A stretch of DNA of 64,000 nt, taken from positions 64,682-128,681 of the forward strand of contig JADGRH010000003.1 of NCBI GenBank assembly GCA_017881075.1, read 5' to 3'. Of this stretch, positions 1,584-56,415 are shown piece after piece. The position numbers were made by a program, and so were the translations under genes. The notes beneath the pieces are model-generated. The model worked only from the letters and a program-made list of their open reading frames with translations, did no database searches and had not been told where the DNA came from. This stretch comes from Minisyncoccota bacterium. GTDB taxonomy: Bacteria > Patescibacteriota > Minisyncoccia > Phycocordibacterales > CAJBRS01. How positions within the stretch are numbered: the first letter of the stretch is position 1; every line of letters starts with the position of its first letter.

Positions 1584-3242
1584 ATGACTCAAGCAGAAGC
1601 ACTGGATATCTTAAAGATGGGACACAATGTATTTATCACCGGCGCAGCTGGAAGTGGCAAAACTCACACTCTGCGTGCCTATATTGATTATTTGAACAAG
1701 AGCAATGCGAGCGTTGCCATTACCGCATCCACGGGAATTGCGGCTACGCACATTGGTGGTAGCACCATTCACTCATGGAGCGGCCTGGGAGTCCGCGATT
1801 CTCTTTCCGAGCAGGACTTAAGTGAAATGGAAGAGCGACAATATCTCTGGCGACGATATGATCAAGTAAGGATTTTAATAATTGATGAAGTTTCAATGCT
1901 CCATCATTTTCGATTTGATCTTTTGGATAAAATTTGCCGATTTTTCAAAAGAAACGATGCCCCCTTCGGGGGCATGCAAATAGTGCTTTGCGGTGACTTC
2001 TTCCAACTGCCGCCAGTCACCATAATGGGGGAGCCGGAGGCAAGCTTCATTCATAAATCAGATGTTTGGGAAGAGATGAATTTGAAGATCTGCTATCTCT
2101 CCGAACAGCATCGCCAAAATATTGAAGACGAATATTTTAAAATCCTAAATGAGATCCGCGGGAATGATGTCGGCACGGATACATACGAACTCCTACAATC
2201 CCGTCTTAACCAAGAATCCGAATCAAAAATTCCGCCGACTCGTCTCTACACTCACAACATTGATGTTGATGCCGTGAATAACCGCGAGCTCGGAAAGATT
2301 GCGGGGGAGGCAAAAATTTACGCCATGTCTTCCAAAGGAAGGGCCGCTATAGTGGAGACTTTGAAAAAGAGTTGTCTTTCACCGGAGAAACTTTCTCTTA
2401 AAATTGGAGCCAAAGTAATGTTCGTTAAAAATAATTTTGAGAAACATTATGTTAATGGAACATTGGGGATAGTTGTGGCTTATGATTCAGCCGGTTATCC
2501 TATTGTGGAAACTCTTTCTGGAAAGAGGATACTGGCCACACCGGAGAGCTGGATGATAGAAGAAGAGGGCAAGATTAAAGCCGAGATCAATCAAGTGCCG
2601 CTCCGGCTCGCCTGGGCTATTACTGTGCATAAAAGCCAAGGAATGAGCCTTGATGCGGCAGAAATGGACCTATCAAAATCTTTCATTAAAGGGATGGGAT
2701 ATGTGGCTCTTTCGCGAGTGCGTAGTTTAAAAGGCTTGAAGCTACTCGGTATCAATCAAATGGCTCTGCGAGTAGATGAAGGTGTTTTTGAATACGATCA
2801 AACTCTCCGATCACTTTCAAAACAAAGCCAAAGTGAGTTAAAGAAGATGACCGCAAGCGAAATGAAAAAAGAGCAGGGAGAATTTCTGGCGAAAGTTGCT
2901 GGCTCCAAAAAAATTAAGGAAGAAAAAATAGCCACTCATCACAAAACCAAAAATCTTTTGCTCCAGAAGCTCTCTTTGGAAGAAATGGCAGAGGCGCGTG
3001 GGATGACCACCGAGACTATTGTCAGTCATATTGAGAAATTACTAGAGGAAGATCCGTCGTTTGATGTTCAGTATCTTTTCAATGCTAATTTTACTGATGA
3101 GCGTTTTCAGAAAATTGAAAAAGCTTTTGAAAAATCTTTAGCCAAGAATGGCGACTATCGTTTGGCGCCGGTGCGAGGTCTGCTTGGGCCCGATTTTGAT
3201 TATTTGGAACTGCGCATAGCGAGGTTGTTTTTGGGAAAGTAG
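1584..3242 (+). CDS. PIF1/RecD-family ATP-dependent DNA helicase
   Basis: Walker A GAAGSGKT, LIIDEVSM (motif II), FFQLPPV, AITVHKSQG, C-terminal HhH-like tail; typical PIF1-like SF1B motif order. Confidence 0.8.
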   Translation: MTQAEALDILKMGHNVFITGAAGSGKTHTLRAYIDYLNKSNASVAITASTGIAATHIGGSTIHSWSGLGVRDSLSEQDLSEMEERQYLWRRYDQVRILIIDEVSMLHHFRFDLLDKICRFFKRNDAPFGGMQIVLCGDFFQLPPVTIMGEPEASFIHKSDVWEEMNLKICYLSEQHRQNIEDEYFKILNEIRGNDVGTDTYELLQSRLNQESESKIPPTRLYTHNIDVDAVNNRELGKIAGEAKIYAMSSKGRAAIVETLKKSCLSPEKLSLKIGAKVMFVKNNFEKHYVNGTLGIVVAYDSAGYPIVETLSGKRILATPESWMIEEEGKIKAEINQVPLRLAWAITVHKSQGMSLDAAEMDLSKSFIKGMGYVALSRVRSLKGLKLLGINQMALRVDEGVFEYDQTLRSLSKQSQSELKKMTASEMKKEQGEFLAKVAGSKKIKEEKIATHHKTKNLLLQKLSLEEMAEARGMTTETIVSHIEKLLEEDPSFDVQYLFNANFTDERFQKIEKAFEKSLAKNGDYRLAPVRGLLGPDFDYLELRIARLFLGK

Positions 3243-3310
3243 TCTTGAAAGGAATTGAACAAAAACCAAAACTAAGTAATAATGGAATGGTTATATAATA
3301 AATCAAAACA

Positions 3311-3730
3311 ATGAGCGAAAAATTTGAACCAAATCCATTGACTCCTGAAACACCTCCTGAGAAATCGATTCAGAGACTTGCTGAAGAGATTTACAAGAAG
3401 AGACCAAAGGATGGCCCTATGATTATTATGGATGTGGACGAGACAAAAAGAGAAGCTCTTTTGACTGCAGTGTCAGTGCTCTGTAAGACTGGTGAAGTTG
3501 AGGAACCAATGCCTCCAATATTTTTTGTTAACGATAAAGAAGATCTTGCTTCATTAGCCCCGAAATTAGTGGATGACGAAAGCACAATAAGACAAGCAAT
3601 GGAAAAACTTCAGCTCGCCGATTTTCCCGAACCAATCTTAGTCGATGAGAAACCTCCAGAACCATGGCACCCAAAAGCTAAACATCCTCCCTGGGAAAAA
3701 CGTCCCAAGAAAAAAGGAAGGAGAAAATAA
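3311..3730 (+). CDS. hypothetical protein, Pro/Lys-rich C-terminus
   Basis: 139-aa ORF immediately upstream of the TrmB-like gene (8-nt gap), probably co-transcribed. Confidence 0.45.
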   Translation: MSEKFEPNPLTPETPPEKSIQRLAEEIYKKRPKDGPMIIMDVDETKREALLTAVSVLCKTGEVEEPMPPIFFVNDKEDLASLAPKLVDDESTIRQAMEKLQLADFPEPILVDEKPPEPWHPKAKHPPWEKRPKKKGRRK

Positions 3731-6206: not shown

Positions 6207-6316
6207 TTTTAATTTAACTTTTCTTTATGGGAGATTCATCACCCATTTATATATTTAAGTAATAGCAGAAAGATTTGCAAGGATTTGGGTATTCCTGAAG
6301 AAGATTAAAATTAAAA

Positions 6317-6347
6317 AATCCGGCCGAAGCATTTGTCGGCCGGATTA
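6317..6347. terminator. conserved hairpin AATCCGGCCGA-N8-TCGGCCGGATT (family copy 1), bidirectional terminator
   Basis: perfect stem; A-run upstream and T/A-run downstream; sits between convergent genes; same arms as copies at 7708 and 9474. Confidence 0.65.
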
Positions 6348-6361
6348 TCAAAACCATTCGC

Positions 6362-6793: not shown

Positions 6794-7705
6794 ATGGATC
6801 AATCTCAAAACTCCACTAGAGAATATTCTGCCATTAGCCCAACATCTCGCAGCTCATTTTGGATGAAAACTTTCACCGACATTCCTTACGTGCGGGAAAT
6901 ATACGACGAGCTGGAAAAAGGGAAGCAGAGTGGAGCGGAAAGCAAAATCAGGGATTACGGAATCAATCATGTTGGTCTCTCAAGTATTGCTCCATATTTT
7001 GAGGCGAGATACTTAATCATTAATAGATTATTGAAAGAAGTTGGAGCGACACAGATTATTGAATTAGCTTCCGGCCTCACTCCTCGGGGTCTTGAGCTTA
7101 CCAAAGATCCAAATATCACTTTCATCGAATTAGACCTCCCTGATGTAATCGAAGAGAAAAAGAAAATAGTGGAAAATATTATAAGAGAGCATAAAATCGG
7201 CGATCGTAACAATTTGTATCTGGAAGCAGGAAGCGCCCTGGAAGAAGCGGATATCATGAAAGCCGCCTCTCATTTTGATGAAAAGAAAGAGATCGCTATT
7301 ATTAATGAAGGATTACTTCGCTATCTGAAAAGAGACGAACAGGCAAAAATGGCTCAGGCGATCTTACCCGTGCTTCAAAAATTCGGGGGAGTATGGATCA
7401 CCCCTGATATTGGCATCAGAGATAAAATGCTGGCAGGACAAGCGAAATTGTCGCCGATATTCATAGACAGAACTAAAAAGTTGGAAAAAATGACGGGCGC
7501 TGGAAATTTTTCCGACAACCTTTTCGCCGATGCTGCAGAAGCCAAGGCAATCTATGAAAAACTAGGATTTGAGATAGAGATGCATACTTACTCTGAAGTA
7601 TCCGATCAACTCGTTTCACCCACTAAACTCGGTCAACCAAAAGAGATTACAGACTCACTTATGGAATGGAGCAAGGTCTTTGTGATGCACCCAAAGACCA
7701 AATAA
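6794..7705 (+). CDS. class I SAM-dependent methyltransferase, leucine carboxyl methyltransferase (LCM)/TcmP-like
   Basis: IIELASGLTPRGLEL resembles the LCM motif VV.LGAGLDTR; acidic residue after beta2 (IELDLPD); 303 aa; leaderless-style start 6 nt after TAGTATTA. Confidence 0.5.
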   Translation: MDQSQNSTREYSAISPTSRSSFWMKTFTDIPYVREIYDELEKGKQSGAESKIRDYGINHVGLSSIAPYFEARYLIINRLLKEVGATQIIELASGLTPRGLELTKDPNITFIELDLPDVIEEKKKIVENIIREHKIGDRNNLYLEAGSALEEADIMKAASHFDEKKEIAIINEGLLRYLKRDEQAKMAQAILPVLQKFGGVWITPDIGIRDKMLAGQAKLSPIFIDRTKKLEKMTGAGNFSDNLFADAAEAKAIYEKLGFEIEMHTYSEVSDQLVSPTKLGQPKEITDSLMEWSKVFVMHPKTK

Positions 7706-7707
7706 AA

Positions 7708-7738
7708 AATCCGGCCAGAGAATTCACGGGCCGGATTA
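7708..7738. terminator. conserved hairpin AATCCGGCC-N12-GGCCGGATTA (family copy 2)
   Basis: same arms as 6317 and 9474; between convergent genes. Confidence 0.65.
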
Positions 7739-8089
7739 CGAAAAACTTCTGAGTCCTAACAGCATGATGATGGTATTTACCAAATCGTCAGGATGAGCCT
7801 CATGGGTGCATCGAAAATAATTCAACATAATCTGTCGGATACCGGGACTTTTGTCCACAACCACAATGGGTCCATTGCAATGAGGAGGAAGACTCTTCAG
7901 AAGTGCTCCGGTGTTGAACGTTTTTGACCCAACACAAGTTTCGACGGCTACAAGGTCATAACGATCAGATTCCTCAATCGCGAATCTAACGTCGTAGGCG
8001 TAGCTTGCGCTGACGTCATATTCCTCCAACCTCCTTTGCCACTCGGTCGCCAGGTCATTGTCATTAGTCACAATTAAGATATTCTTCAT
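7736..8089 (-). CDS. receiver-fold paralog with degenerate phospho-acceptor site (ILIVTNDND .. DLVAVETCVG)
   Basis: 117 aa; ~65% identical to 9503..9856; the Asp of the DLVxxD pocket is replaced by Glu and the beta4 Thr is absent. Confidence 0.55.
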   Translation of the reverse strand: MKNILIVTNDNDLATEWQRRLEEYDVSASYAYDVRFAIEESDRYDLVAVETCVGSKTFNTGALLKSLPPHCNGPIVVVDKSPGIRQIMLNYFRCTHEAHPDDLVNTIIMLLGLRSFS

Positions 8090-9350: not shown

Positions 9351-9473
9351 AGTGCTTTCCTCGGTTTGTGTTGTTCTTCTCTTCTGAAATCATATTACTT
9401 AAATAGGGGATTAGTTCAAGTTATGGGTTTTCCAAATTTTGAGCGGGTTTTTCACGAAATTGAAGAAAATAAA

Positions 9474-9505
9474 AAATCCGGCCTGTGAATCGGTCGGCCG
9501 GATTA
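9474..9505. terminator. conserved hairpin AATCCGGCC-N12-GGCCGGATTA (family copy 3)
   Basis: same arms; lies directly 3' of receiver paralog 9503..9856. Confidence 0.65.
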
Positions 9506-9856
9506 AGAATAGCGCTTCAATTCAAGAAGAGTGACGATGAGAGACACCAACAAGTCCGGATGCGCGCCATGTGTGCATCCAAAATCTCTAATCATTGCCT
9601 GACGGATCTCCGAACTCTCGTCCACGATCACTATTGGTCCATTAGAATGGGCAGGGAGACTCTTGAGGAGTGGGCCCGTATTGAATGTCTTGGAGCCAAC
9701 GCAGGTCTCTACCGCCACGAGGTCATAACGGTCTTGATTGGAAACCGCATAACTTACGTCATAGGCGTAGCTTGCGTTGACTGCGTATTCATCCAGTCTA
9801 TTCCGCCAATCGGACAGATGGTCATTGTTAGTAGACACAATTAGGATAAACTTCAT
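9503..9856 (-). CDS. receiver-fold paralog with degenerate phospho-acceptor site
   Basis: MKFILIVSTNND .. YDLVAVETCVGSKTFNTG; 117 aa; paralog of 7736..8089. Confidence 0.55.
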   Translation of the reverse strand: MKFILIVSTNNDHLSDWRNRLDEYAVNASYAYDVSYAVSNQDRYDLVAVETCVGSKTFNTGPLLKSLPAHSNGPIVIVDESSEIRQAMIRDFGCTHGAHPDLLVSLIVTLLELKRYS

Positions 9857-25568: not shown

Positions 25569-26024
25569 ATGAAATTCAAGTCCATTTTGATCATTATTGT
25601 CGTTGTTTTGATTGTGGTGACGTTATCTTTTTTATATTTCTCTCATTCTCCCTCGCAACAAAAAAACTACGGATTTGAGCCACTTTCTATCGGACAGAGC
25701 ACTGTTAATGTAGAAATCGCCAACACCGAAGCTAAAAGAACTTTAGGCTTGGGTAATCGTTCCACTCTGTTAGAAAATAATGGCATGCTCTTTGTATTTG
25801 ATAAACCGGGTACCTATGGTTTTTGGATGAAGGATACGAATTTTCCGCTAGATTTTATCTGGATTGATGAAAATAAAAAAATTATTGACATCACCAATGA
25901 TGTTTTACCAGAAACGTACCCGAAAGTTTTCTATTCGTCCAGTCCGGTGCTCTATGTCTTGGAGGTAGGGGGTGGATGGGCCGAATCTCACGGAATCAAA
26001 ATTGGGGCAGAGGTTGGTTTCTAA
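25569..26024 (+). CDS. DUF192 domain protein
   Basis: NGMLFVFD .. FWMKDTNFPLDFIWIDENKKII pattern. Confidence 0.6.
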   Translation: MKFKSILIIIVVVLIVVTLSFLYFSHSPSQQKNYGFEPLSIGQSTVNVEIANTEAKRTLGLGNRSTLLENNGMLFVFDKPGTYGFWMKDTNFPLDFIWIDENKKIIDITNDVLPETYPKVFYSSSPVLYVLEVGGGWAESHGIKIGAEVGF

Positions 26025-26030
26025 AAATTG

Positions 26031-26068
26031 ACGGCAAAAGAGCCCTATTTCCTAGGCTCTTTTGCCGT
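26031..26068 (+). terminator. rho-independent terminator
   Basis: GGCAAAAGAGCC..loop..GGCTCTTTTGCC. Confidence 0.6.
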
Positions 26069-26167
26069 CGCCGTTTACATTTAAAAATTTTCATTTCCGT
26101 CTGAGGAATTTCCTTGCTTCGGTATAGAAATTCAGCTTTCATTGATGTAGAATGGTGGAATAAAGTC

Positions 26168-28921: not shown

Positions 28922-29932
28922 ATGCCACTAATCGGAAAAGCGTCGCCGGAGGATATGAATTTACACCCAATGAAGTATCAGTGGGCCTATGATCTTTATA
29001 ATCAAGCAGTTCGAAATACATGGTTTCCTCATGAGATTGCTTTGAAGGAAGACTTGGAAGATTGGGAAAAGATGACGGAGGACGAAAGACACGCAGTGAA
29101 ATTCCTGATGGCCTTTTTTAATCCGGCCGAGCTGATCGTAAATCGCTCCATCGCTCTCGGCATTTATCCGTATCTGAAGTCGCCGGAGTGCCATCTCTAT
29201 CTAGCCAAGGTGATGTGGGAGGAGGCTAATCATTGCGTTGCTTTTGAGTATGTTCTAGAGACCTTTCCGCTCGATCGCGAAAAAGTTTTCGGCATTCATC
29301 TGGAAGTGCCCTCAATGAAGGCTAAGGAGGATTATATTTTTCGCTACATGAAACGCATGACCGAAAACACCTTGGATATTGAAACAGTAGAAGGGAAGAA
29401 GGATTTCATCCGCAACCTTGTGGCAACTAACATTGTCATGGAAGGCATCTGGTTTTATTCCGGTTTCATGGTGGCTCTTTCCTTTCGTCAGCGCAATCAG
29501 CTTCGCAATTTTGGCTCCATGATCAACTGGGTTTTGCGAGACGAGTCACTTCACTTAAAATTTGGCATCAATCTCATTCATACCATCCTGGAAGAGAACG
29601 CCGAGTTAATTACCGAAGAATTTGCCGCCGAGATTCGCAATATCGTTATTGAAGGAGTGGACAAAGAAGTGGCCTATAACAAGGATCTCTTTCCAAATGG
29701 TATTCTTGGTTTAAATGCCGACTATGTTAATCAGTATGTGCAGTATGTGGCTGACAGGCGACTGGAAGAGTTGGGAATGGAGAAACATTACAATGCTACT
29801 AATCCGGCCAAGTGGATGAGCACTGCAACTGATGTTTTTGAATTGGTTAATTTCTTTGAGGCGCAAAACACTAGCTACGAAGTGGATGCGAGAGCGCATT
29901 CGGAGAAAAAGAAAGATGAACCAGCCGTTTAA
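28922..29932 (+). CDS. nrdB: ribonucleoside-diphosphate reductase beta subunit (ferritin-like, class I)
   Basis: EEANHC, E..H pairs, and a C-terminal tail typical of R2. Confidence 0.85.
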   Translation: MPLIGKASPEDMNLHPMKYQWAYDLYNQAVRNTWFPHEIALKEDLEDWEKMTEDERHAVKFLMAFFNPAELIVNRSIALGIYPYLKSPECHLYLAKVMWEEANHCVAFEYVLETFPLDREKVFGIHLEVPSMKAKEDYIFRYMKRMTENTLDIETVEGKKDFIRNLVATNIVMEGIWFYSGFMVALSFRQRNQLRNFGSMINWVLRDESLHLKFGINLIHTILEENAELITEEFAAEIRNIVIEGVDKEVAYNKDLFPNGILGLNADYVNQYVQYVADRRLEELGMEKHYNATNPAKWMSTATDVFELVNFFEAQNTSYEVDARAHSEKKKDEPAV

Positions 29933-29941
29933 GGACGAAAC

Positions 29942-30009
29942 CTACAACTTTTTTAGAGACTAAGACTTGGGCAAACGCCCCGGAGTGGTCTCTAAAAAAG
30001 TTCGTAGGT
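29942..30009. repeat. 68-bp structured palindromic element, copy 1 (20-bp stem + loop TAAGACTTGGGCAAACGCCCCGGAGTG)
   Basis: near-perfect inverted repeat CCTACAACTTTTTTAGAGAC / GTCTCTAAAAAAGTTCGTAGG; a second copy in opposite orientation lies at 55729..55794. Confidence 0.7.
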
Positions 30010-30061
30010 GAGTCATTAAACGGACTTGTCTTATTTAAAAAATTTTATATAATAGACTCTT

Positions 30062-30453
30062 CTTGAATCGGGTAATTGCTCCGCCACCTAAAAAGGGCGG
30101 GGAGGAAAGTCCGAACACAGGCCCTTCACCAAAATTGGTGAAGGGAAGAGTAGCGGGTAATACCCGTCTGGAGCAATCCACGAGGTGCGAACAGAGACGA
30201 ACCGGTTAAGTCCGGGTGAAACGGCTAAATCCTTACTTCTGTGCAAGGCCGCGCGCCAATTTTGTCCGCTAGAGGCGGTTACAAAATTGAGCGTCCCGAG
30301 ATTTTCGAGGGATTGATCCTTCGACAAGCTCAGGGCACTCAATCTTGCAGCCACCTGCAGTGGGCAAGATTGGTGAGTGCCGCTTGACTCCGAGAGTAAT
30401 CGAGGAGCTAGATAAATAATTATCGATAACAGAATTCGGCTTATAGATTCAAG
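30062..30453 (+). ncRNA. rnpB: RNase P RNA (bacterial type A)
   Basis: P4 GGAGGAAAGTCCG.ACACAGG and 3' ACAGAATTCGGCTTAT conserved blocks; P1 pairing CTTGAATC/GATTCAAG; the minus-strand ORF 30088..30504 is spurious. Confidence 0.85.
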
Positions 30454-30464
30454 AAGACAAATCA

Positions 30465-30494: not shown

Positions 30495-30497
30495 CTA

Positions 30498-30590
30498 TTT
30501 GCATCGTCTTTTCAAGATGTTATAATAAATGAAAGCTAATGAAAGAATTTGCATCGTCTTTTCAAAATGTTATAATAAATGAAAGCTAAT
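30498..30590 (+). promoter_or_regulatory. tandemly duplicated (~50 bp x2) promoter segment carrying an extended -10 TGTTATAAT
   Basis: TTTGCATCGTCTTTTCAA[G/A]ATGTTATAATAAATGAAAGCTAATG occurs twice with one mismatch; the second copy ends at the ATG of 30589. Confidence 0.55.
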
Positions 30591-32985
30591 GGAAAAAATT
30601 GAAATCAAAACAGAAGAAGTTGTTCCGGAGAGAAATATTTTAACTACCATCCCTCATGTTCTGGTCGGAGCCTTATTGTTTCTGTTGCCAATATTTTTTA
30701 TCCCATCACCTCTTATTGCTTTTGGTTACGGTAAAATGATAATTGTGGCGGTGGTTGTTCTAATCTCACTTTTTAGCTGGATCGTCATTGTTTTTAAAGT
30801 TGGTAAGCTAACCTTGCCGATCAATTGGCTCTCTCTTTCTATTGTAGCTATTCCAATAATTTTTTTATTGGCCGCCATCTTTTCCCCTAATAGAGCAACT
30901 TCACTTATAGCCTCCGGTCTTGAACCTGGCACCTTCAGTTTCATCTTACTACTCTTTCTCTTAATGTTTCTGGTTTCCGTCTTTGTTCGAAACAAAAAAA
31001 ATATTTTTTCTTGCTACCTTTGGTTTGGAGTCGGGTTTATTGTTCTGGCCATTTATCAGATACTTCATTTGTTTTTAGGACCAAACTTTTTATCCTTTAA
31101 TTATTTTACCGATGTTGCCTCCAGTCCTTTGGGCAAATGGAATGATTTAGCCATCTTTGCGGGTGCTGCTGTTTTACTGACGCTTGTCAGTCTGGAGCTT
31201 TTGGTTTTAAGTCGTTTGGCGAAAAGTTTACTTTACACCCTTTTAATTATCGAATTATTTCTTTTAGCCATAACAAACTTTACCATCATTTGGGCTACTC
31301 CCGTCAGTATCATTACTCTCATCGGTTTTTTTGCCCTGCTCTTTTTTGTATATTTCATTTCATCAAATCACCTTTCCACAAATCAGGCTCCGGAGATGGG
31401 AAATTATTACCAGGCGACGACCCCACAAGGACTGGGGCACCGCCGTCTACCCTGGCCTTCATTAATAGTGTTGGTTTTTGCGGTGATCTTTACCCTGGGG
31501 GCCGGCCCGATTGGATCTTCCATCACTTCATTTTTTAAAATTAATGTTCTGGACGTCTCACCCACCTGGCAGTCCACTTTCACGGTGGCCAAGGCTAGTA
31601 TTTCTCGAAGCCCGATTTTGGGAATTGGACCCAACCGTTTTAGTAGTGAATGGAATCTTTCAAAACCGGACGGAGTCAATGCCACCGACTTCTGGAGCAC
31701 CGATTTTGACTCTGGAGTAGGAACGATTCCGACATTCTTAGTCACTACCGGCTCTTTGGGAATCTTAGCCTGGCTTATCTTTTTAGGCTTTCTTCTTTAC
31801 TTGGGTGGAAAAGCGATCTTTTCTGGGGTTAAAGATCAGCTCTCTCTTTATTTGATTATTTCCTCTTTCTTTGTGGCTATCTATCTATGGATTGTCCATA
31901 TTATGTATGTGTCGGGTGTTGTGATGTTTATCTTTGCCTTTATTTTTACCGGTCTCTTTTTAGCTTCTCTTTTTCGGGAGGGTATGCTTAAGGAGAGGAC
32001 CATTTTTTATGTTCAAGACTCTCGGAAAGGGTTTGTGACAATCTTGCTTTTAGTACTAATTTTAATCGGAGTGATTAGCGGAGGGTATTTATTATCAGAA
32101 AAAGTTTTGGCCTCGGTTTATGCCAACAGAGGAGTTACAACTCTCAATTCGGCAGATGTTCAAGGGGCCGAAAATTACACCCTTCAGGCAATTAACGCTG
32201 ATAAAAATCCGGCATATTATCGTTTACTTTCCCAGATTGAATTAGTCAAAATTAGTAATATTCTTCAGCAAGGCAGTCTCACTGCCGATATTGTCAAAAC
32301 CCAATTTCAGAATGGTCTGACTAACGCTGTTTCTGCCGCTTCTACCGCTACCAGTCTAGACCCAACCGATTATCAGAATTGGCTCTCTCTCGGGGCTGTT
32401 TATGAAAATGTCATTCCCCTCGGTGTAGCGGGGGCTTCAGGACAAGCGGCAAGTGCTTATCTGGAAGCCTTGAAGAGAAGTCCACAGAATCCATCTATAT
32501 ATCTAATGTTGGCTCGAGCAGAGTTAGCAAATAAGAATTATGATAAATCCAAGGAATATATTCTGGATGCTCTTCGGTTAAAAAATAATTATCTTGATGC
32601 CATTTATCTTTTGACACAACTTGATCTTTCTCAAGGTAACGGAGCGGCCGCTCTGGCTGATTTAGGTGTAGCGGTCACAGTAGCTCCAAATGATGCAGGA
32701 CCCTATTTCCAGATCGGCGTTTTAAATTATAATTTAGGTAATTATGAACCGGCCGCCACCGCCCTCACTCAATCTCTACGTTTAGTACCCAATTATGCGG
32801 ATGCAAAATACTATCTCGCTCTTAGCGACTATAAACTGAACCAAAAAGATGAAGCCACCAGACTTTTTCAGGAGCTTGTTGATGCTAACCCTATTAATAC
32901 CACTCTTACCGCCATTTTGGACAACATTAAGGGTGGTCGCGACCCTCTTTCAACTTCCACCGCGGCTACCAGTAGTAAAAAATAA
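30589..32985 (+). CDS. large polytopic membrane protein with C-terminal TPR repeats (O-antigen-ligase-like, inferred)
   Basis: more than 10 TM helices then a TPR-like helical repeat region. Confidence 0.45.
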   Translation: MEKIEIKTEEVVPERNILTTIPHVLVGALLFLLPIFFIPSPLIAFGYGKMIIVAVVVLISLFSWIVIVFKVGKLTLPINWLSLSIVAIPIIFLLAAIFSPNRATSLIASGLEPGTFSFILLLFLLMFLVSVFVRNKKNIFSCYLWFGVGFIVLAIYQILHLFLGPNFLSFNYFTDVASSPLGKWNDLAIFAGAAVLLTLVSLELLVLSRLAKSLLYTLLIIELFLLAITNFTIIWATPVSIITLIGFFALLFFVYFISSNHLSTNQAPEMGNYYQATTPQGLGHRRLPWPSLIVLVFAVIFTLGAGPIGSSITSFFKINVLDVSPTWQSTFTVAKASISRSPILGIGPNRFSSEWNLSKPDGVNATDFWSTDFDSGVGTIPTFLVTTGSLGILAWLIFLGFLLYLGGKAIFSGVKDQLSLYLIISSFFVAIYLWIVHIMYVSGVVMFIFAFIFTGLFLASLFREGMLKERTIFYVQDSRKGFVTILLLVLILIGVISGGYLLSEKVLASVYANRGVTTLNSADVQGAENYTLQAINADKNPAYYRLLSQIELVKISNILQQGSLTADIVKTQFQNGLTNAVSAASTATSLDPTDYQNWLSLGAVYENVIPLGVAGASGQAASAYLEALKRSPQNPSIYLMLARAELANKNYDKSKEYILDALRLKNNYLDAIYLLTQLDLSQGNGAAALADLGVAVTVAPNDAGPYFQIGVLNYNLGNYEPAATALTQSLRLVPNYADAKYYLALSDYKLNQKDEATRLFQELVDANPINTTLTAILDNIKGGRDPLSTSTAATSSKK

Positions 32986-43539: not shown

Positions 43540-44793
43540 TTATTTTAAGGCTAGATTTCCATTAGCTCCGAAATCGGATTTCGGGTTTTTGTCACTTAAA
43601 TAATTGAAATAACCAGCCATGGCGATCATAATGGCGTTGTCGGTGGAGAGGTGGGAGTCGGGAATTAGGAGTTGGGTGTCAGGAGAAGCAGCGATTAAAT
43701 CTTGAAAGGAGCGGCGGAGGTGGGTATTGGCGATTACACCTCCGCCGACTATTAGAGTTTTAATATCAAATTCTTCAATGGCTCGTTTGGTTTTGGTAAT
43801 CAATACTTCAGTGACCGAATCTTCAAATTCTCTGGCCATTTTTGCTTTCCATTCTGGATCTGATTTTTCTTTGTCGGTCATTTTTTTAATTGTGTAAAGG
43901 ACGGCAGTTTTCAATCCGGAAAAAGAGAAATCGTAATCGTTTGATTTGATCATTGGTCTGGGCAAAACAAAGTTGCAGAGGTTTGACCTCTGCAAGTGAT
44001 CTGCAGAGGTCAGACCTCTGCAACGCTCTAAATCGGCCAATTTTGAGATTTCAGGCCCGCCAGGGTAGGGAAGATCCAGCATTCTAGCCACCTTATCAAA
44101 AGCTTCTCCAACCGCGTCATCACGAGTTTGACCAATGATTTTGTATTTTTTCCATGCTTCAATTAAGACTAGCTCAGTATGGCCACCGCTAATGAGAAGT
44201 GCTAAAGCTGGAAAAGAAAAGCTGACAGTTGGTAACTGATAGCTTTCAGCTTTAGATTTTTTTGGTAATAAAGCTGACATAATGTGTCCTTCCATGTGAT
44301 TAGTAGGAATGACAGGCAGATCCCAAACGAATCCCAACGCCTTGGCAAAATTAATACCGACCCAAAGTGCTGGCTCAAGACCGGGGCCGGTGGTGACGGC
44401 AATGGCTTCAATATCCGGCTTAGGAATTGTCGGAATAAATTTAAGAAATTGTTCGAGTAATTCAGGCTCGCGTTCTAGGATCTTTTTCAAACCCCCTCCA
44501 ACTCCCCCTTGTCTAAGGGGGAGAGGAAGCCCCCCCTCCTCAAACGAGGAGGGGGTAGGGGGTGGTGTTGAACCCAATTTATCTAATAACTCTTTTAACA
44601 ACGGAATCAGATTTCTAGAATGCTCTCTCTTCGCCATCATCGGATACACTCCGCCATATTTTTCATGAATTTTAGTCTGGGAATTAAGCGCTTCAGCAAT
44701 CACTTTAAATTGAGGTCGCTCAAAACCGCCATTGGATTCCACGATAGCGAGCGCTGTTTCATCACAGCTAGTTTCAATACCTAGGATTTTCAT
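43540..44793 (-). CDS. tsaD: tRNA N6-adenosine threonylcarbamoyltransferase TsaD with two in-frame repeat-derived insertions
   Basis: MKILGIETSCDETA, HMEGH, GGVAN-type, DFSFSGLKTA motifs; 417 aa vs ~340 typical; see findings for the insertions. Confidence 0.8.
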   Translation of the reverse strand: MKILGIETSCDETALAIVESNGGFERPQFKVIAEALNSQTKIHEKYGGVYPMMAKREHSRNLIPLLKELLDKLGSTPPPTPSSFEEGGLPLPLRQGGVGGGLKKILEREPELLEQFLKFIPTIPKPDIEAIAVTTGPGLEPALWVGINFAKALGFVWDLPVIPTNHMEGHIMSALLPKKSKAESYQLPTVSFSFPALALLISGGHTELVLIEAWKKYKIIGQTRDDAVGEAFDKVARMLDLPYPGGPEISKLADLERCRGLTSADHLQRSNLCNFVLPRPMIKSNDYDFSFSGLKTAVLYTIKKMTDKEKSDPEWKAKMAREFEDSVTEVLITKTKRAIEEFDIKTLIVGGGVIANTHLRRSFQDLIAASPDTQLLIPDSHLSTDNAIMIAMAGYFNYLSDKNPKSDFGANGNLALK

Positions 44794-45835: not shown

Positions 45836-46432
45836 TTATACGTATTGTGGGTTCTTTTTGAGCTTGTTAATTTCTTTCACTAATTCTCCGATATGGATCT
45901 CCAAGTTCTGTGTTCGCTCCGCCAGTTTTATTTCCAGTTGATTTGAATGTTTGGCCATTGTTTCGGCGATCTTCATCATTTCAGTTACATCTTCTATGGC
46001 CAAAAGAATAATTGGTGGAAATATTTTTGAGGCACTTTCTTCTTGAAAATGTATTTGCCGAGCATTTAAGATCATTACCTTACGGCCGATGGAAGGAAAT
46101 TCATGGGCCACTTCAAAACCTTTGAGGAAAGTATTTTTAGGTAGAATGTCTTCCAATAGATCACGCAGTGATGGGATATTCCATTGACCATTACCGAGTT
46201 CATAAACATGCGTATGAGTAGTATCTTTTTCTTCCACTTGAAACATCTTGTAGAAGGACTCGTTGGCCGCCATGACACAGAGATCTTTATTAAGGATTAA
46301 GACTGGTTCCCGTACTACATCCACTACCGTTTTAATGTATGTCCATCCTTCTGCCGATAAGCGCTCGAAAAAACTAGCCCCAAATGGCTTAGAAGACTCG
46401 GCTATCTCATTTTTAGGTGCTTTCATATTCAT
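45836..46432 (-). CDS. PAS-domain protein with C-terminal coiled coil (paralog of 47210..47791)
   Basis: about 70% identity to the other PAS gene over the PAS fold: VREPVLILNKDLCVMAANESFYKMFQVEEKDTTHTHVYELGNGQWNIP. Confidence 0.6.
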   Translation of the reverse strand: MNMKAPKNEIAESSKPFGASFFERLSAEGWTYIKTVVDVVREPVLILNKDLCVMAANESFYKMFQVEEKDTTHTHVYELGNGQWNIPSLRDLLEDILPKNTFLKGFEVAHEFPSIGRKVMILNARQIHFQEESASKIFPPIILLAIEDVTEMMKIAETMAKHSNQLEIKLAERTQNLEIHIGELVKEINKLKKNPQYV

Positions 46433-47209: not shown

Positions 47210-47791
47210 ATGAAAAAATACAAAAAGGACCTTGGCCGAGAATTTAATCAAGCGGAGATAGATTTTATCGAGCGTATAGATAAAGAAAGTAGGTTATATA
47301 TTAAGACCTTGGTGGATATTGTCCGGGAGCCAATTTTAATACTTGATGAAGATCTTCGGGTGAAGATGGCCAACGAGTCCTTCTACAAGATGTTTCAAGT
47401 GGAAGAAAAAGATACTACTCATATGCATGTTTATGAACTCGGTAATGGTCAGTGGAATATTCCTGCTCTCCGAAAACTTCTTGAAGAGATTCTGCCTAAA
47501 AATACCTTCTTCAAAGGTTTTAATGTTACTCATGAGTTTCCTATAATCGGCCAGAAATCAATGGTCTTAAATGCCCGCAAGATTTATTTCGCGGATAACA
47601 CTACTCCACAAATATTTCCGTCTATTATCTTTCTTGCTATAGAAGACAACACCGCAATGATGGCTGTTGCTGAAACTCTGGCTATTCACGTAAAAGAACT
47701 TGCATCTAAAAATGCAGAACGAACCTGGAAACTAGAAATGTATATCTCTAAATTAGAAAAAGAAATTAATGAAATCAAGGAGAATATTTAG
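47210..47791 (+). CDS. PAS-domain protein with C-terminal coiled coil (paralog of 45836..46432)
   Basis: see paralog; opposite orientation. Confidence 0.6.
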   Translation: MKKYKKDLGREFNQAEIDFIERIDKESRLYIKTLVDIVREPILILDEDLRVKMANESFYKMFQVEEKDTTHMHVYELGNGQWNIPALRKLLEEILPKNTFFKGFNVTHEFPIIGQKSMVLNARKIYFADNTTPQIFPSIIFLAIEDNTAMMAVAETLAIHVKELASKNAERTWKLEMYISKLEKEINEIKENI

Positions 47792-55027: not shown

Positions 55028-55705
55028 TTATTTAACTGCAGTTTCTGAAACACTACCGGGGAGAATAGCAATTCTGTCAGGTGGCAGTAATCTCAAGAAA
55101 GCTCTTCCAACAATCTCATTTCGCGAGACTGGTCCCCATGAACGGGAATCATAACTTACCGGTCGATTATCACCCATAACAAAATATTGGTCGGGACCGA
55201 GGGTAACAGTCATATTTTTTTCACCTTGGTATTTGATGTATGACTCGTCCAACTGAAATCCTTCGAGATTAGAAGCATTTTTTATGATTATTTTGTCATT
55301 GCGAATTTCCAAAGTCTCATTAGGCAGACCAATAACTCTTTTAATATAAAAAACCTTTTGATCAAGTGGCGGACGGAAGATTACCACATCGCCACGGTTC
55401 GGATTATGTAGGTGATACGACAATTCATCCACAATCAAATATTCTCCCCCGGAAAAGTTTGGTTCCATGGAAGTGCCGACAACAATAAATGGTTGAGCAA
55501 CGAAGAAGCGCAGAGGTACAAGCACTACCAAGATGAAAAAAACAAATTTCAGAAGCTCTTTGAAAAAACTGGCACTCTTAAATGTTTTATTAGTTGGAAT
55601 TTCTACTGATCTTGCCATTTTTTCACTCTCAATCTCTTCATTCATGGCCACATAATATAGGCAAAGAGTGCTTGACACAAGGATATAAGCCGTGTTATGG
55701 CTCAT
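55028..55705 (-). CDS. lepB: signal peptidase I
   Basis: VVGTSMEP (catalytic Ser), KRVIGLPNE, FVMGDNRPVSYDSRSWGPV. Confidence 0.8.
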   Translation of the reverse strand: MSHNTAYILVSSTLCLYYVAMNEEIESEKMARSVEIPTNKTFKSASFFKELLKFVFFILVVLVPLRFFVAQPFIVVGTSMEPNFSGGEYLIVDELSYHLHNPNRGDVVIFRPPLDQKVFYIKRVIGLPNETLEIRNDKIIIKNASNLEGFQLDESYIKYQGEKNMTVTLGPDQYFVMGDNRPVSYDSRSWGPVSRNEIVGRAFLRLLPPDRIAILPGSVSETAVK

Positions 55706-55728
55706 TTTGTCCTACTTCGAAATCTCGT

Positions 55729-55794
55729 CTACGAACTTTTAAACAGACCACTCCGGGGCGTTTGCCCAAGTCTTAGTCTGTTTAAAAGTTGTAG
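55729..55794. repeat. 68-bp structured palindromic element, copy 2 (reverse orientation relative to 29942..30009)
   Basis: CTACGAACTTTTAAACAGAC CACTCCGGGGCGTTTGCCCAAGTCTTA GTCTGTTTAAAAGTTGTAG; about 90% identical to the revcomp of copy 1 including the loop. Confidence 0.7.
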
Positions 55795-55824
55795 ACTTCG
55801 CTTCCGAAGTAGTAAGATACAAAG

Positions 55825-56415
55825 ATGTTTTATATTATTGGCCTAGGAAATCCTGGAGAAGAGTACGACAACACTCGACACAATGTCGGCAGAATGAGCG
55901 TGGAAATTTTCAGCAAGAATCATAAGCTTCCTGAATTTTCCATAAATAAAAAATTAAGAGCGCTGGTGTCCGAGGGGAAGGTCGGCCGCGATAAAGTGAC
56001 GCTTGTCTTGCCGGAAACTTTTATGAATAAGTCCGGTGAATCGGTGAAGCCGATAATTACCAGTAAGAAAAAAGCGGCCAGTCTTGTTGTTGTTTCCGAC
56101 GACCTGGACTTGCCGCTCGGCCGTTTCAAGATTGCTTTCAATCGCGGCTCCGGCGGACACAAGGGCGTGGAGTCCATTATTCGAGCGGTGAAGACAGAAG
56201 AATTTATCAGAGTGAAAGTGGGTATCTCACCCTCGACCGCCTCCGGTAAATTAAGAAAGCCCGACAGCAAAGAAATTCTAGATTTCATCATTGGTAAATT
56301 TAAAAAGCCAGAATTGGAAAAAATGAAGAAAGTTTTTAAAAAAGTCTCCGAAGCACTCGAGATGATTGTTGTTGAAGGAAAAGATAGAGCCATGGGAGAA
56401 TTCAATAGCCGATAA
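55825..56415 (+). CDS. pth: peptidyl-tRNA hydrolase
   Basis: IIGLGNPG..Y..TRHNVG; DDLDLPLGRFKI; GGHKGV. Confidence 0.85.
   Translation: MFYIIGLGNPGEEYDNTRHNVGRMSVEIFSKNHKLPEFSINKKLRALVSEGKVGRDKVTLVLPETFMNKSGESVKPIITSKKKAASLVVVSDDLDLPLGRFKIAFNRGSGGHKGVESIIRAVKTEEFIRVKVGISPSTASGKLRKPDSKEILDFIIGKFKKPELEKMKKVFKKVSEALEMIVVEGKDRAMGEFNSR

Follow-up and report, generated by a model that had tools for sequence, protein, structure and literature searches.

Repetitive extragenic palindromic (REP) sequences and bacterial interspersed mosaic elements (BIMEs) of Proteobacteria are short palindromes, dispersed in tens of copies per genome or more, that occur in both orientations, mostly just downstream of stop codons within or between operons, and form very stable hairpins that are not intrinsic terminators. 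Protection of mRNA 3′ ends and binding of host proteins have been proposed as their roles. The conserved parts of REPs are the stem sequence and a 5′ GTAG, their families are species- or genus-specific, and they flank the genes of REP-associated tyrosine transposases (RAYTs). Integron attC sites, which have conserved boxes at the stem foot and a variable centre and are located in cassette arrays next to an integrase gene, conserve structure while sequence varies, contain extrahelical bases, and have one strand that folds better. Hairpin-loop inversions in non-coding chloroplast DNA occur at incidental hairpins without a conserved loop. Rickettsia palindromic elements (RPEs) are palindromic repeats of reduced genomes that are located in frame inside housekeeping genes and add a peptide to the product (PMC10969869). 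Tandem interspaced guide RNA (TIGR) arrays are located beside a Tas/Nop gene, and their loops contain two variable spacers bounded by box C/D motifs (PMC12045711). Here we describe a hairpin element present twice in a 64,000-nucleotide stretch of DNA (the window; positions 64,682 to 128,681 of contig JADGRH010000003.1) of a Minisyncoccota bacterium. This bacterium belongs to the Patescibacteria or Candidate Phyla Radiation (CPR), a very large and mostly uncultivated part of the bacterial tree with genomes of ca. 1 Mb, on whose non-coding sequence little is known.

The two window copies are members of a large family of dispersed hairpin repeats, so far without annotation, that extends across Patescibacteria/CPR and is restricted to them. 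Comparison of the copies showed dispersed palindromes of the REP/RPE kind with an inverted pattern of conservation, in which the stem is variable and the structured apex is invariant. A range as broad as a superphylum is unusual for such a family. We lean, with moderate confidence, towards the reading that the window copies are ordinary members of this family, that the apex is recognized by a factor, and that the element has a REP-like effect at gene boundaries.

As in REPs, many palindromic copies are dispersed in both orientations, mainly between genes and near gene ends, and their very stable hairpins are not intrinsic terminators. In contrast to REPs, however, the stem is hypervariable and a 27-nt apex is conserved across the superphylum; the conserved palindrome with a 5′ tetranucleotide was not found. 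A RAYT-like neighbor was also not found among the 225 open reading frames (ORFs) that flank the copies. As with RPEs, copies are located in frame in uvrB and in pilin leader regions; in the conserved gene uvrB, they have a length divisible by three and leave the frame open. RPEs are ca. 150 bp long, conserved over their full length, and restricted to one genus, whereas the CPR element is 70–125 nt long, conserved at the apex alone, mostly intergenic, and distributed over several CPR classes. The element shares with attC sites a structure that is conserved under sequence change, extrahelical bases, and a better-folding strand. Unlike attC sites, it has a conserved apex, its copies are solitary and dispersed among housekeeping genes without cassette arrays, and R″/R′ foot boxes (RYYYAAC...GTTRRRY) are not present in the family. 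TIGR arrays are also frequent in CPR genomes and have variable yet palindromic stems flanking a motif-bearing loop, but the CPR element is solitary, its loop is invariant and has no spacers (just 14 apex haplotypes in 107 copies), and it has no RUGAUGA (box C) or CUGA (box D) motif. In a by-eye check of the resemblances to K-turns, box C/D, and attC, the respective motifs were not present. Finally, as in the chloroplast inversions and in flip/flop hairpins, the loop between the inverted repeats occurs both flipped and unflipped with respect to the flanks; the difference is that the segment inverted in the CPR element is a conserved, functional-looking module.

Two copies of the hairpin in the window

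A repeat search of the window returned arms at 29936–30012 and 55724–55800 (77 nt, 87% complementary). The hairpins in these arms, ca. 70 nt long and in opposite orientations, were delimited at 29940–30009 (copy 1) and 55727–55796 (copy 2), which confirms with minor refinement the pair of copies noticed in a preliminary description of this DNA. Hereafter, orientation A is the strand reading CACTCC...TCTTA, and orientation B (strand B) is its complement, TAAGAC...GGAGTG. Copy 1 has orientation B on the plus strand and consists of the 5′ arm ACCTACAACTTTTTTAGAGAC (29940–29960), which begins 7 nt past the nrdB stop codon (29930–29932), the 27-nt apical module TAAGACTTGGGCAAACGCCCCGGAGTG (29961–29987), and the 3′ arm GTCTCTAAAAAAGTTCGTAGGT (29988–30009) with a bulged C at 30003. 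Copy 2 has orientation A on the plus strand and B on the minus strand; it consists of the arm GTCTACGAACTTTTAAACAGAC (55727–55748; bulged G at 55733), located 21 nt from the lepB start codon (55705), the apical module CACTCCGGGGCGTTTGCCCAAGTCTTA (55749–55775), which is the reverse complement of that of copy 1, and the second arm GTCTGTTTAAAAGTTGTAGAC (55776–55796), located 28 nt upstream of the pth start codon (55825).

The loop CACTCCGGGGCGTTTGCCCAAGTCTTA matched exactly at 29961–29987 (minus strand) and 55749–55775 (plus strand), so that the sharing of a 27-nt loop, already proposed, holds to the last base. No third match with up to three mismatches was present in the window, where shuffled sequences predict 0. 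Each stem measured 21 bp with its one bulged base, and the five pairs that differ between the two copies were all compensated (5/5). The predicted folding energies were −35 to −43 kcal/mol as RNA (z −6 to −8.7 against shuffled controls) and −21 to −24 kcal/mol as DNA. The GGGC-GTTT-GCCC mini-hairpin that had been pointed out inside the loop appeared in every predicted fold. In copy 1, the apex has a U·G closing pair (29961/29987), a GGGC/GCCC mini-helix (29969–29972/29977–29980), and an AAAC tetraloop.

Distribution of the hairpin family

The preliminary description had suggested a search for further copies. We scanned GTDB, with one genome per species, using a 20-mer of the loop as the query. 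The 20-mer was found at 31 places, with up to six copies in one genome, and nearly all of them were in metagenome-assembled genomes (MAGs) of Patescibacteria (Saccharibacteria, Paceibacterota/Parcubacteria, Minisyncoccia, and unclassified members). A match in a MAG of Phycisphaeraceae had no stem and was discarded as a chance match. A metagenome scan with a slightly degenerate core yielded 111 further stretches, and a covariance model yielded 97 matches in metagenome material. The pooled and de-duplicated total was 110 distinct copies; the possibility that only two copies exist, which would have spoken against a repeat family, clearly fails. Single contigs of 32–150 kb contained up to 5–6 copies, and the density on long contigs was at least one per 25–30 kb (the window has two in 64 kb). 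The number of sites was roughly 30–40 per genome. Since the sources were mostly MAGs and metagenome contigs, counts per genome are minimum values, and some bins may contain mixed material.

The covariance model was built from an ungapped alignment of 71 columns and 27 copies from which the window copies were excluded. It scored the withheld window copies at 78.5 bits (E 2e-20) and 75.7 bits (E 1e-19) and gave no other convincing match in the rest of the window. The public scans demanded the exact core; therefore, diverged members are under-sampled, and the apparent invariance of the matched 20–22 nt is partly by construction. The core was still highly conserved in the covariance-model matches and in the uvrB lineage described below, which were found independently of the exact pattern.

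When the window and 18 loci were compared with Rfam 15 at gathering thresholds, only rnpB and tRNAs were returned. Permissive E-values, with the nested subfamily described below included, added just generic long-hairpin miRNA-precursor models at 13–28 bits against cut-offs of 54–250. A full-text search of the searchable literature for the core sequence and for CPR palindromic elements returned nothing matching. The sole non-bacterial record with the element was contig JWKQ01000003.1 of 'archaeon GW2011_AR5'. This contig has genes for a sortase and for PEP-utilizer domain proteins but none that is diagnostic of Archaea, and hence may be a mis-binned CPR contig; occurrence across domains was not accepted on this record, which is not confirmed as archaeal.

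Variable stem and conserved apex

In the aligned copies, a GAGAC-[27 nt]-GTCTC core was near-invariant, and the remaining stem was unrelated in sequence even within one genome yet always self-complementary. The copies thus share just the apex and 5–9 loop-proximal pairs. The stems (21–49 bp overall) fell into length classes of ca. 21–22, 31–32, and 38–49 bp. Covariation across copies, which had been named as a check, was very strong: in the 27-copy alignment, 20 of the 22 stem pairs changed on both sides, and 96% of the cells were paired, compared with 35–50% when the partners were slid. The pooled stems contained 2922 Watson-Crick pairs (97%), 46 G·U pairs as counted on strand B and leaving out the invariant closing U·G pair, 15 A·C pairs, and 33 other mismatches.

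Members of the 21–22 bp class, including the window copies, have a repeat-like motif at both feet, GCGRAG in orientation B or CTYCGC in orientation A, and this motif belongs to the element. In copy 1, the 5′ foot motif is GACGAA (29934–29939, plus strand) with GTGAG (30008–30012) as its 3′ counterpart; in copy 2, read in orientation B, they are GAAGCGAA (55797–55804, minus strand) and GACGAG (55722–55727, minus strand). CTAC...GTAG, which is found inside the stems of the window copies, is not conserved in the family.

The 27-nt apical module proved to be nearly invariant across CPR classes and is itself folded into a closing pair, a mini-helix, and a tetraloop. The closing U·G pair (strand B) was invariant. 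The 4-bp mini-helix showed a compensated G-C to C-G change (GGGC/GCCC to GGCC/GGCC), and position 8 changed from U·G to C-G with its partner at position 23. Loop positions 15 and 26 switched together, being A-U in 17 haplotypes, G-C in 24, G·U in 1, and unpaired in 4. With just two states, this link may be a trace of clade history instead of a tertiary pair. An inner helix with an A5-U26 pair was rejected, as it fails in 27 of 46 haplotypes and 15/26 pairing fits better. The core provides a sharp marker for CPR contigs in metagenome binning. On a 3.5-kb contig (L003), three copies were located within 3 kb (421–491, 3239–3308, and 3419–3469), and their core variants were all different: one A15/T26, one G15/C26 with C8, and one strongly diverged. 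Different variants of the core can therefore be present side by side in a single genome, without genome-wide homogenisation.

A nested subfamily was represented by locus L041 (3140–3290) and about 19 similar loci on Ga0209515 and related contigs. Its element is ca. 170 nt long and is composed of an outer inverted repeat (GTAACCCCTCAC...GTGAGGGGTTAC), an asymmetric internal loop, a 32-bp stem, and the core. In 6 of the 20 copies, the core was flipped relative to the asymmetric flanks, indicating that the apical segment can invert between its own arms. Some copies of this subfamily have further complementary sequence outside the outer inverted repeat, and one outer flank, ending ...ATTGAAAG, gave a non-significant match to CRISPR-DR6 (19 bits, E 0.2). 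At the orthologous sites examined, the orientation was unchanged; apex flips were seen between loci only. Most coding copies (pilin leaders and uvrB) are in a frame in which orientation A is open and orientation B gives an in-frame TAA, TGA, or TAG; three variants were observed at the stop-codon positions of orientation B, and all of them are stop codons. From these sequence patterns, one could conceive of the apex as a superphylum-wide functional module on a self-correcting palindrome, whose inversion between the arms would act as a flip-flop switch without a dedicated invertase. We consider this highly improbable; if it were true, apex flipping would turn genes such as those of pilins off and on.

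Persistence, loss, and replacement of copies

In three loci (L012, L019, and L029), one and the same pilin gene had the element at a shared position, with flanks ca. 75% identical. Between L012 and L019, the stems differed at 8 of 21 positions, all compensated, and the loop was conserved. The lepB←element→pth arrangement of copy 2 recurred in L001, where the arms are completely different and 38 bp long. In the uvrB genes of L146, L147, and L148, four-fold degenerate sites were 35–41% identical (saturated) and the arms 41–64% identical, and the core was identical at 27/27 positions. By our own arithmetic, such a core match would arise by chance with a probability of ca. 1e-11 at an identity of ca. 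0.4 per neutral site. The 27/27 identity of the core in genes with saturated four-fold sites indicates that individual copies are under purifying selection. These comparisons showed that copies are retained at one site over long vertical descent, during which the stem remains complementary while diverging near the neutral rate and the apex does not change. The family thereby provides a natural experiment on how long palindromes stay paired while diverging, via selection or templated correction.

Copies are also occasionally lost, replaced, or apex-inverted. In L100, the hairpin is located in frame inside uvrB, and residues 438–482 of the product have no counterpart in solved UvrB structures. 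The insert was, among close homologs, present in P0001, P0002, P0003, P0006, P0010, and P0011, cleanly absent in P0004, P0005, and P0007 to P0009, and reduced to shorter remnants in several others; this is a presence/absence polymorphism at a single site among relatives 77–100% identical. The inserts had a net length of 72–144 nt, a multiple of three, and the frame was open in L100, L146, L147, and L148. Comparison of filled (L146, L147, and L148) and empty (L144 and L145) uvrB DNA showed that the flanking CGCTCGC...CTCGCT is absent from the empty sites; therefore, this flank belongs to the element itself and does not represent a target duplication. Since the filled L147 has the empty L144 as its nearest relative (96% amino acid identity), loss is favored. 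L100 and L146 are the closest uvrB pair (56% identity at four-fold sites), yet their cores matched at only 21/27 positions and their arms were ca. 40% identical, indicating that the element was replaced at the uvrB site in one lineage. In L100 (1–1578, minus strand) and L146 (3001–5211), the uvrB insert continues after a spacer with part of a repeated right arm, and the native uvrB sequence GGCCAAGTC just downstream of the insert resembles the core sequence GCCCAAGTC. These two features suggest duplication or recombination through microhomology.

The polymorphism and the same-site replacement in L100, together with the in-frame copies in uvrB and pilin leaders, the almost purely Watson-Crick stems, and the occurrence of several copies per genome in both orientations, would also fit a selfish non-autonomous mobile element. 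In that case, an element of the MITE (miniature inverted-repeat transposable element), REP-RAYT, or IS200/IS605-PATE (palindrome-associated transposable element) type would move as a single-stranded DNA hairpin by a transposase supplied in trans, and the apex would be the recognition site of the transposase, without a host function. We regard this as unlikely. No target-site duplication was found, since the flanking repeat belongs to the element, and terminal repeats are not conserved, as it is the stems that vary. No recurrent transposase-like family was revealed when the 225 flanking ORFs were clustered by BLAST. The arms were very different within one genome, which gives no sign of a recent burst, and the purifying selection on orthologous cores is not predicted for a purely selfish element. 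Furthermore, no exact core match was found in 2.9 million viral contigs, on which basis a phage vehicle was also rejected. Of the preliminary label "REP/MITE-like", the REP-like part thus stands, with ca. 110 distinct copies of a dispersed palindromic family elsewhere. The MITE part was rejected, as completely different arms leave no shared terminal inverted repeats and the filled and empty uvrB sites show no target duplication.

Genomic context and possible mode of action

Context could be assigned for 86 copies, 72 of which were intergenic. Between tandem genes, 41 copies had orientation A and 11 had orientation B on the sense strand; 9 copies were located between convergent genes and 11 between divergent genes. 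Inside ORFs, 10 copies were A-sense and 4 were B-sense. In tandem pairs, the upstream stop codon was at a median distance of 30 nt and the next start codon at a median of 69–97 nt, in both orientations. The neighbors are unrelated housekeeping genes, encoding pilins, PilB- and PilC-like proteins, Pth, LepB, RpsL, NusA, an aminoacyl-tRNA synthetase, and UvrB. In the window, the gene context given in the preliminary description was correct: copy 1 closes the nrdAB unit (NrdB, 28922–29932) ahead of the promoter of rnpB itself (TTGTCT-16-TATAAT at 30026–30053, 3′ of copy 1; rnpB, 30060–30459), and copy 2 is located in the shared leader region of the divergent genes lepB (55028–55705, minus strand; start 55705) and pth (55825–56415, plus strand; start 55825).

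The location of copy 1 just past the nrdB stop codon, and of many members less than 25 nt from a stop codon, might recall an ordinary Rho-independent terminator duplicated by chance. We consider this extremely unlikely, in agreement with the earlier view that the element is not a generic terminator. Neither window copy is followed by a T-run, five or more T within 8 nt after the hairpin were found for just 6 of 52 tandem-context copies, and a scan of the window found neither a terminator nor a promoter inside the element. A stem of 21–49 bp (AT-rich in the window) below a conserved 27-nt loop does not resemble an intrinsic terminator; copy 2 is located between divergent starts and other copies inside ORFs, and the same genome has conventional A-tract/GC-stem hairpins elsewhere. 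Three such hairpins in the window (AAAAAATCCGGCC...GGCCGGATT; 6309–6353, 7700–7744, and 9467–9511) look like conventional bidirectional terminators, and two of them are located in duplicated blocks (7700–7966 and 9467–9733, 71% identical).

At least five pilin-like genes had an ATG 5–8 codons upstream of the hairpin, and their ORFs read through it into the prepilin N-methylation motif (residues 38–58 in L019), using two different frames across the genes. The 20-mer was invariant at third codon positions, indicating that conservation is at the nucleotide level and not at the peptide level. Gaps of 500–650 nt beside some copies had appeared ORF-free and were considered as sites of RNA genes; they turned out to be pilin genes reading through the hairpin. 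Such elements can be located inside essential genes like uvrB and in pilin leader peptides, and they are a source of gene-calling errors in the form of spurious long ORFs and extended N-termini; our own gene calls were ORF-based. L019 (1274–4542, minus strand) is a type IV pilus cluster of Saccharibacteria with four consecutive pilin-like genes next to a prepilin peptidase-like gene. These pilin-like genes have unusually long leaders of 24–50 residues before the G|FTLIE site, and an ATGA start/stop overlap in the cluster suggests translational coupling into the hairpin-bearing gene.

Strand B folded better both as RNA (−43.1 versus −37.0 kcal/mol for the other strand in copy 1) and with DNA parameters (−24.2 versus −21.2 kcal/mol in copy 1 and −24.1 versus −22.3 kcal/mol in copy 2). 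It was also favored by the wobbles, namely 46 G·U versus 15 A·C pairs in the stems, the invariant U·G closing pair, and U8·G23. By context, the stem wobble ratio was 30:6 in A-sense copies and 6:6 in B-sense copies.

Together with the very strong covariation and the structured conserved apex, the strand-B wobbles and the stability of strand B as RNA would suit a gene for a small structured RNA, a possibility raised in the preliminary description, that is transcribed independently from strand B and acts in trans. This is very unlikely in our judgment: no promoter-like or terminator-like signal brackets either window copy, at least 30 near-identical small RNA genes in a genome of ca. 1 Mb would be unusual, coding sequences of uvrB and pilins are unlikely sites for them, and the apex is found in either orientation relative to conserved flanks.

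A site acting at the DNA level was also weighed, in which a cruciform or a strand-B single-stranded hairpin would be the target of a replication, recombination, nucleoid, or DNA-uptake protein, regardless of transcription. Watson-Crick-only stems with few G·U pairs, the better-pairing strand usually being the template strand, and the higher stability of strand B with DNA parameters in both window copies agree with such a site. So do the apex inversion in 6 of 20 copies of one subfamily and the nested long palindromes, which are typical of DNA palindrome dynamics. However, the ca. 4:1 orientation bias relative to gene direction suggests that the orientation in the transcript matters, and structure-preserving variation of the apex speaks for a folded single strand, for which RNA is as plausible as DNA. 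No inflection of GC skew was found between the oppositely oriented window copies, so that orientation is not fixed to the replichore here, and a link of orientation to the replication strand was rejected. We thus rate a DNA-level site as quite improbable.

Under the reading that we favor, an apex recognized by a factor with a REP-like effect at gene boundaries, the element would work as a folded single strand, the stem of which need only pair. The apex would be recognized by a conserved trans-acting CPR factor. A very stable hairpin in the transcript at gene boundaries would provide 3′-end protection, processing, or insulation, and not intrinsic termination. A REP-like effect on transcripts appears most likely because the copies are located mostly just after stop codons. 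The constancy of 27 nt across several CPR classes, in the face of saturated synonymous sites, points to a conserved partner, protein or RNA, and to an unrecognised layer of genome or transcript organization. Provided that a cognate binding factor exists, apex and factor together could serve as a tool.

Several results weigh against this reading. The better-pairing strand B is antisense to the neighboring genes in ca. 80% of the copies, which fits poorly with a hairpin in the sense mRNA. G·U pairs are rare (1.5%), being about as frequent as non-wobble mismatches, and this scarcity fits upkeep of a DNA palindrome by arm-to-arm templated correction better than selection on an RNA helix. Templated correction would explain the perfect pairing at near-neutral divergence and the apex inversions, but not the conserved apex. 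No partner protein emerged among the 225 neighboring ORFs, where only pilus and housekeeping genes recur. Finally, copies located in frame in uvrB and in pilin leaders represent insertion behavior unrelated to gene ends, as do the presence/absence polymorphism and the replacement in uvrB.

Other features of the window

A hairpin at 26029–26070 (GACGGCAAAAGAGCC-(10 nt)-GGCTCTTTTGCCGTC; strand not assigned) scored 22 bits with the covariance model (E 7.5e-4). It is located 5 nt past the stop codon of the ORF 25569–26024 and upstream of nrdA, lacks the 27-nt core, and shares with the family just the loop-proximal AAAAGAG/CTCTTTT. It may be a core-less relative of the family or an unrelated terminator-like hairpin, with a T-run on the minus strand. 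A near-perfect palindrome at 43972–44024, with 23-nt arms (96%) and a 7-nt spacer, is located inside the ORF 43540–44793 (minus strand) and gave a weak generic match to the hairpin model (21.6 bits).

The rnpB gene next to copy 1 scored 113 bits against a gathering score of 100; it is thus a divergent type-A rnpB, as might be expected for CPR. Between rnpB and a TPR-repeat gene (30589–32985), a 50-nt unit is duplicated in tandem (30497–30596, 94% identical), and each unit has a TTGCAT...TATAAT promoter-like sequence. An inverted repeat of 522 nt (45852–46373 and 47263–47784, 72% identity) corresponds to the divergent paralogous genes 45836–46432 (minus strand) and 47210–47791 (plus strand).

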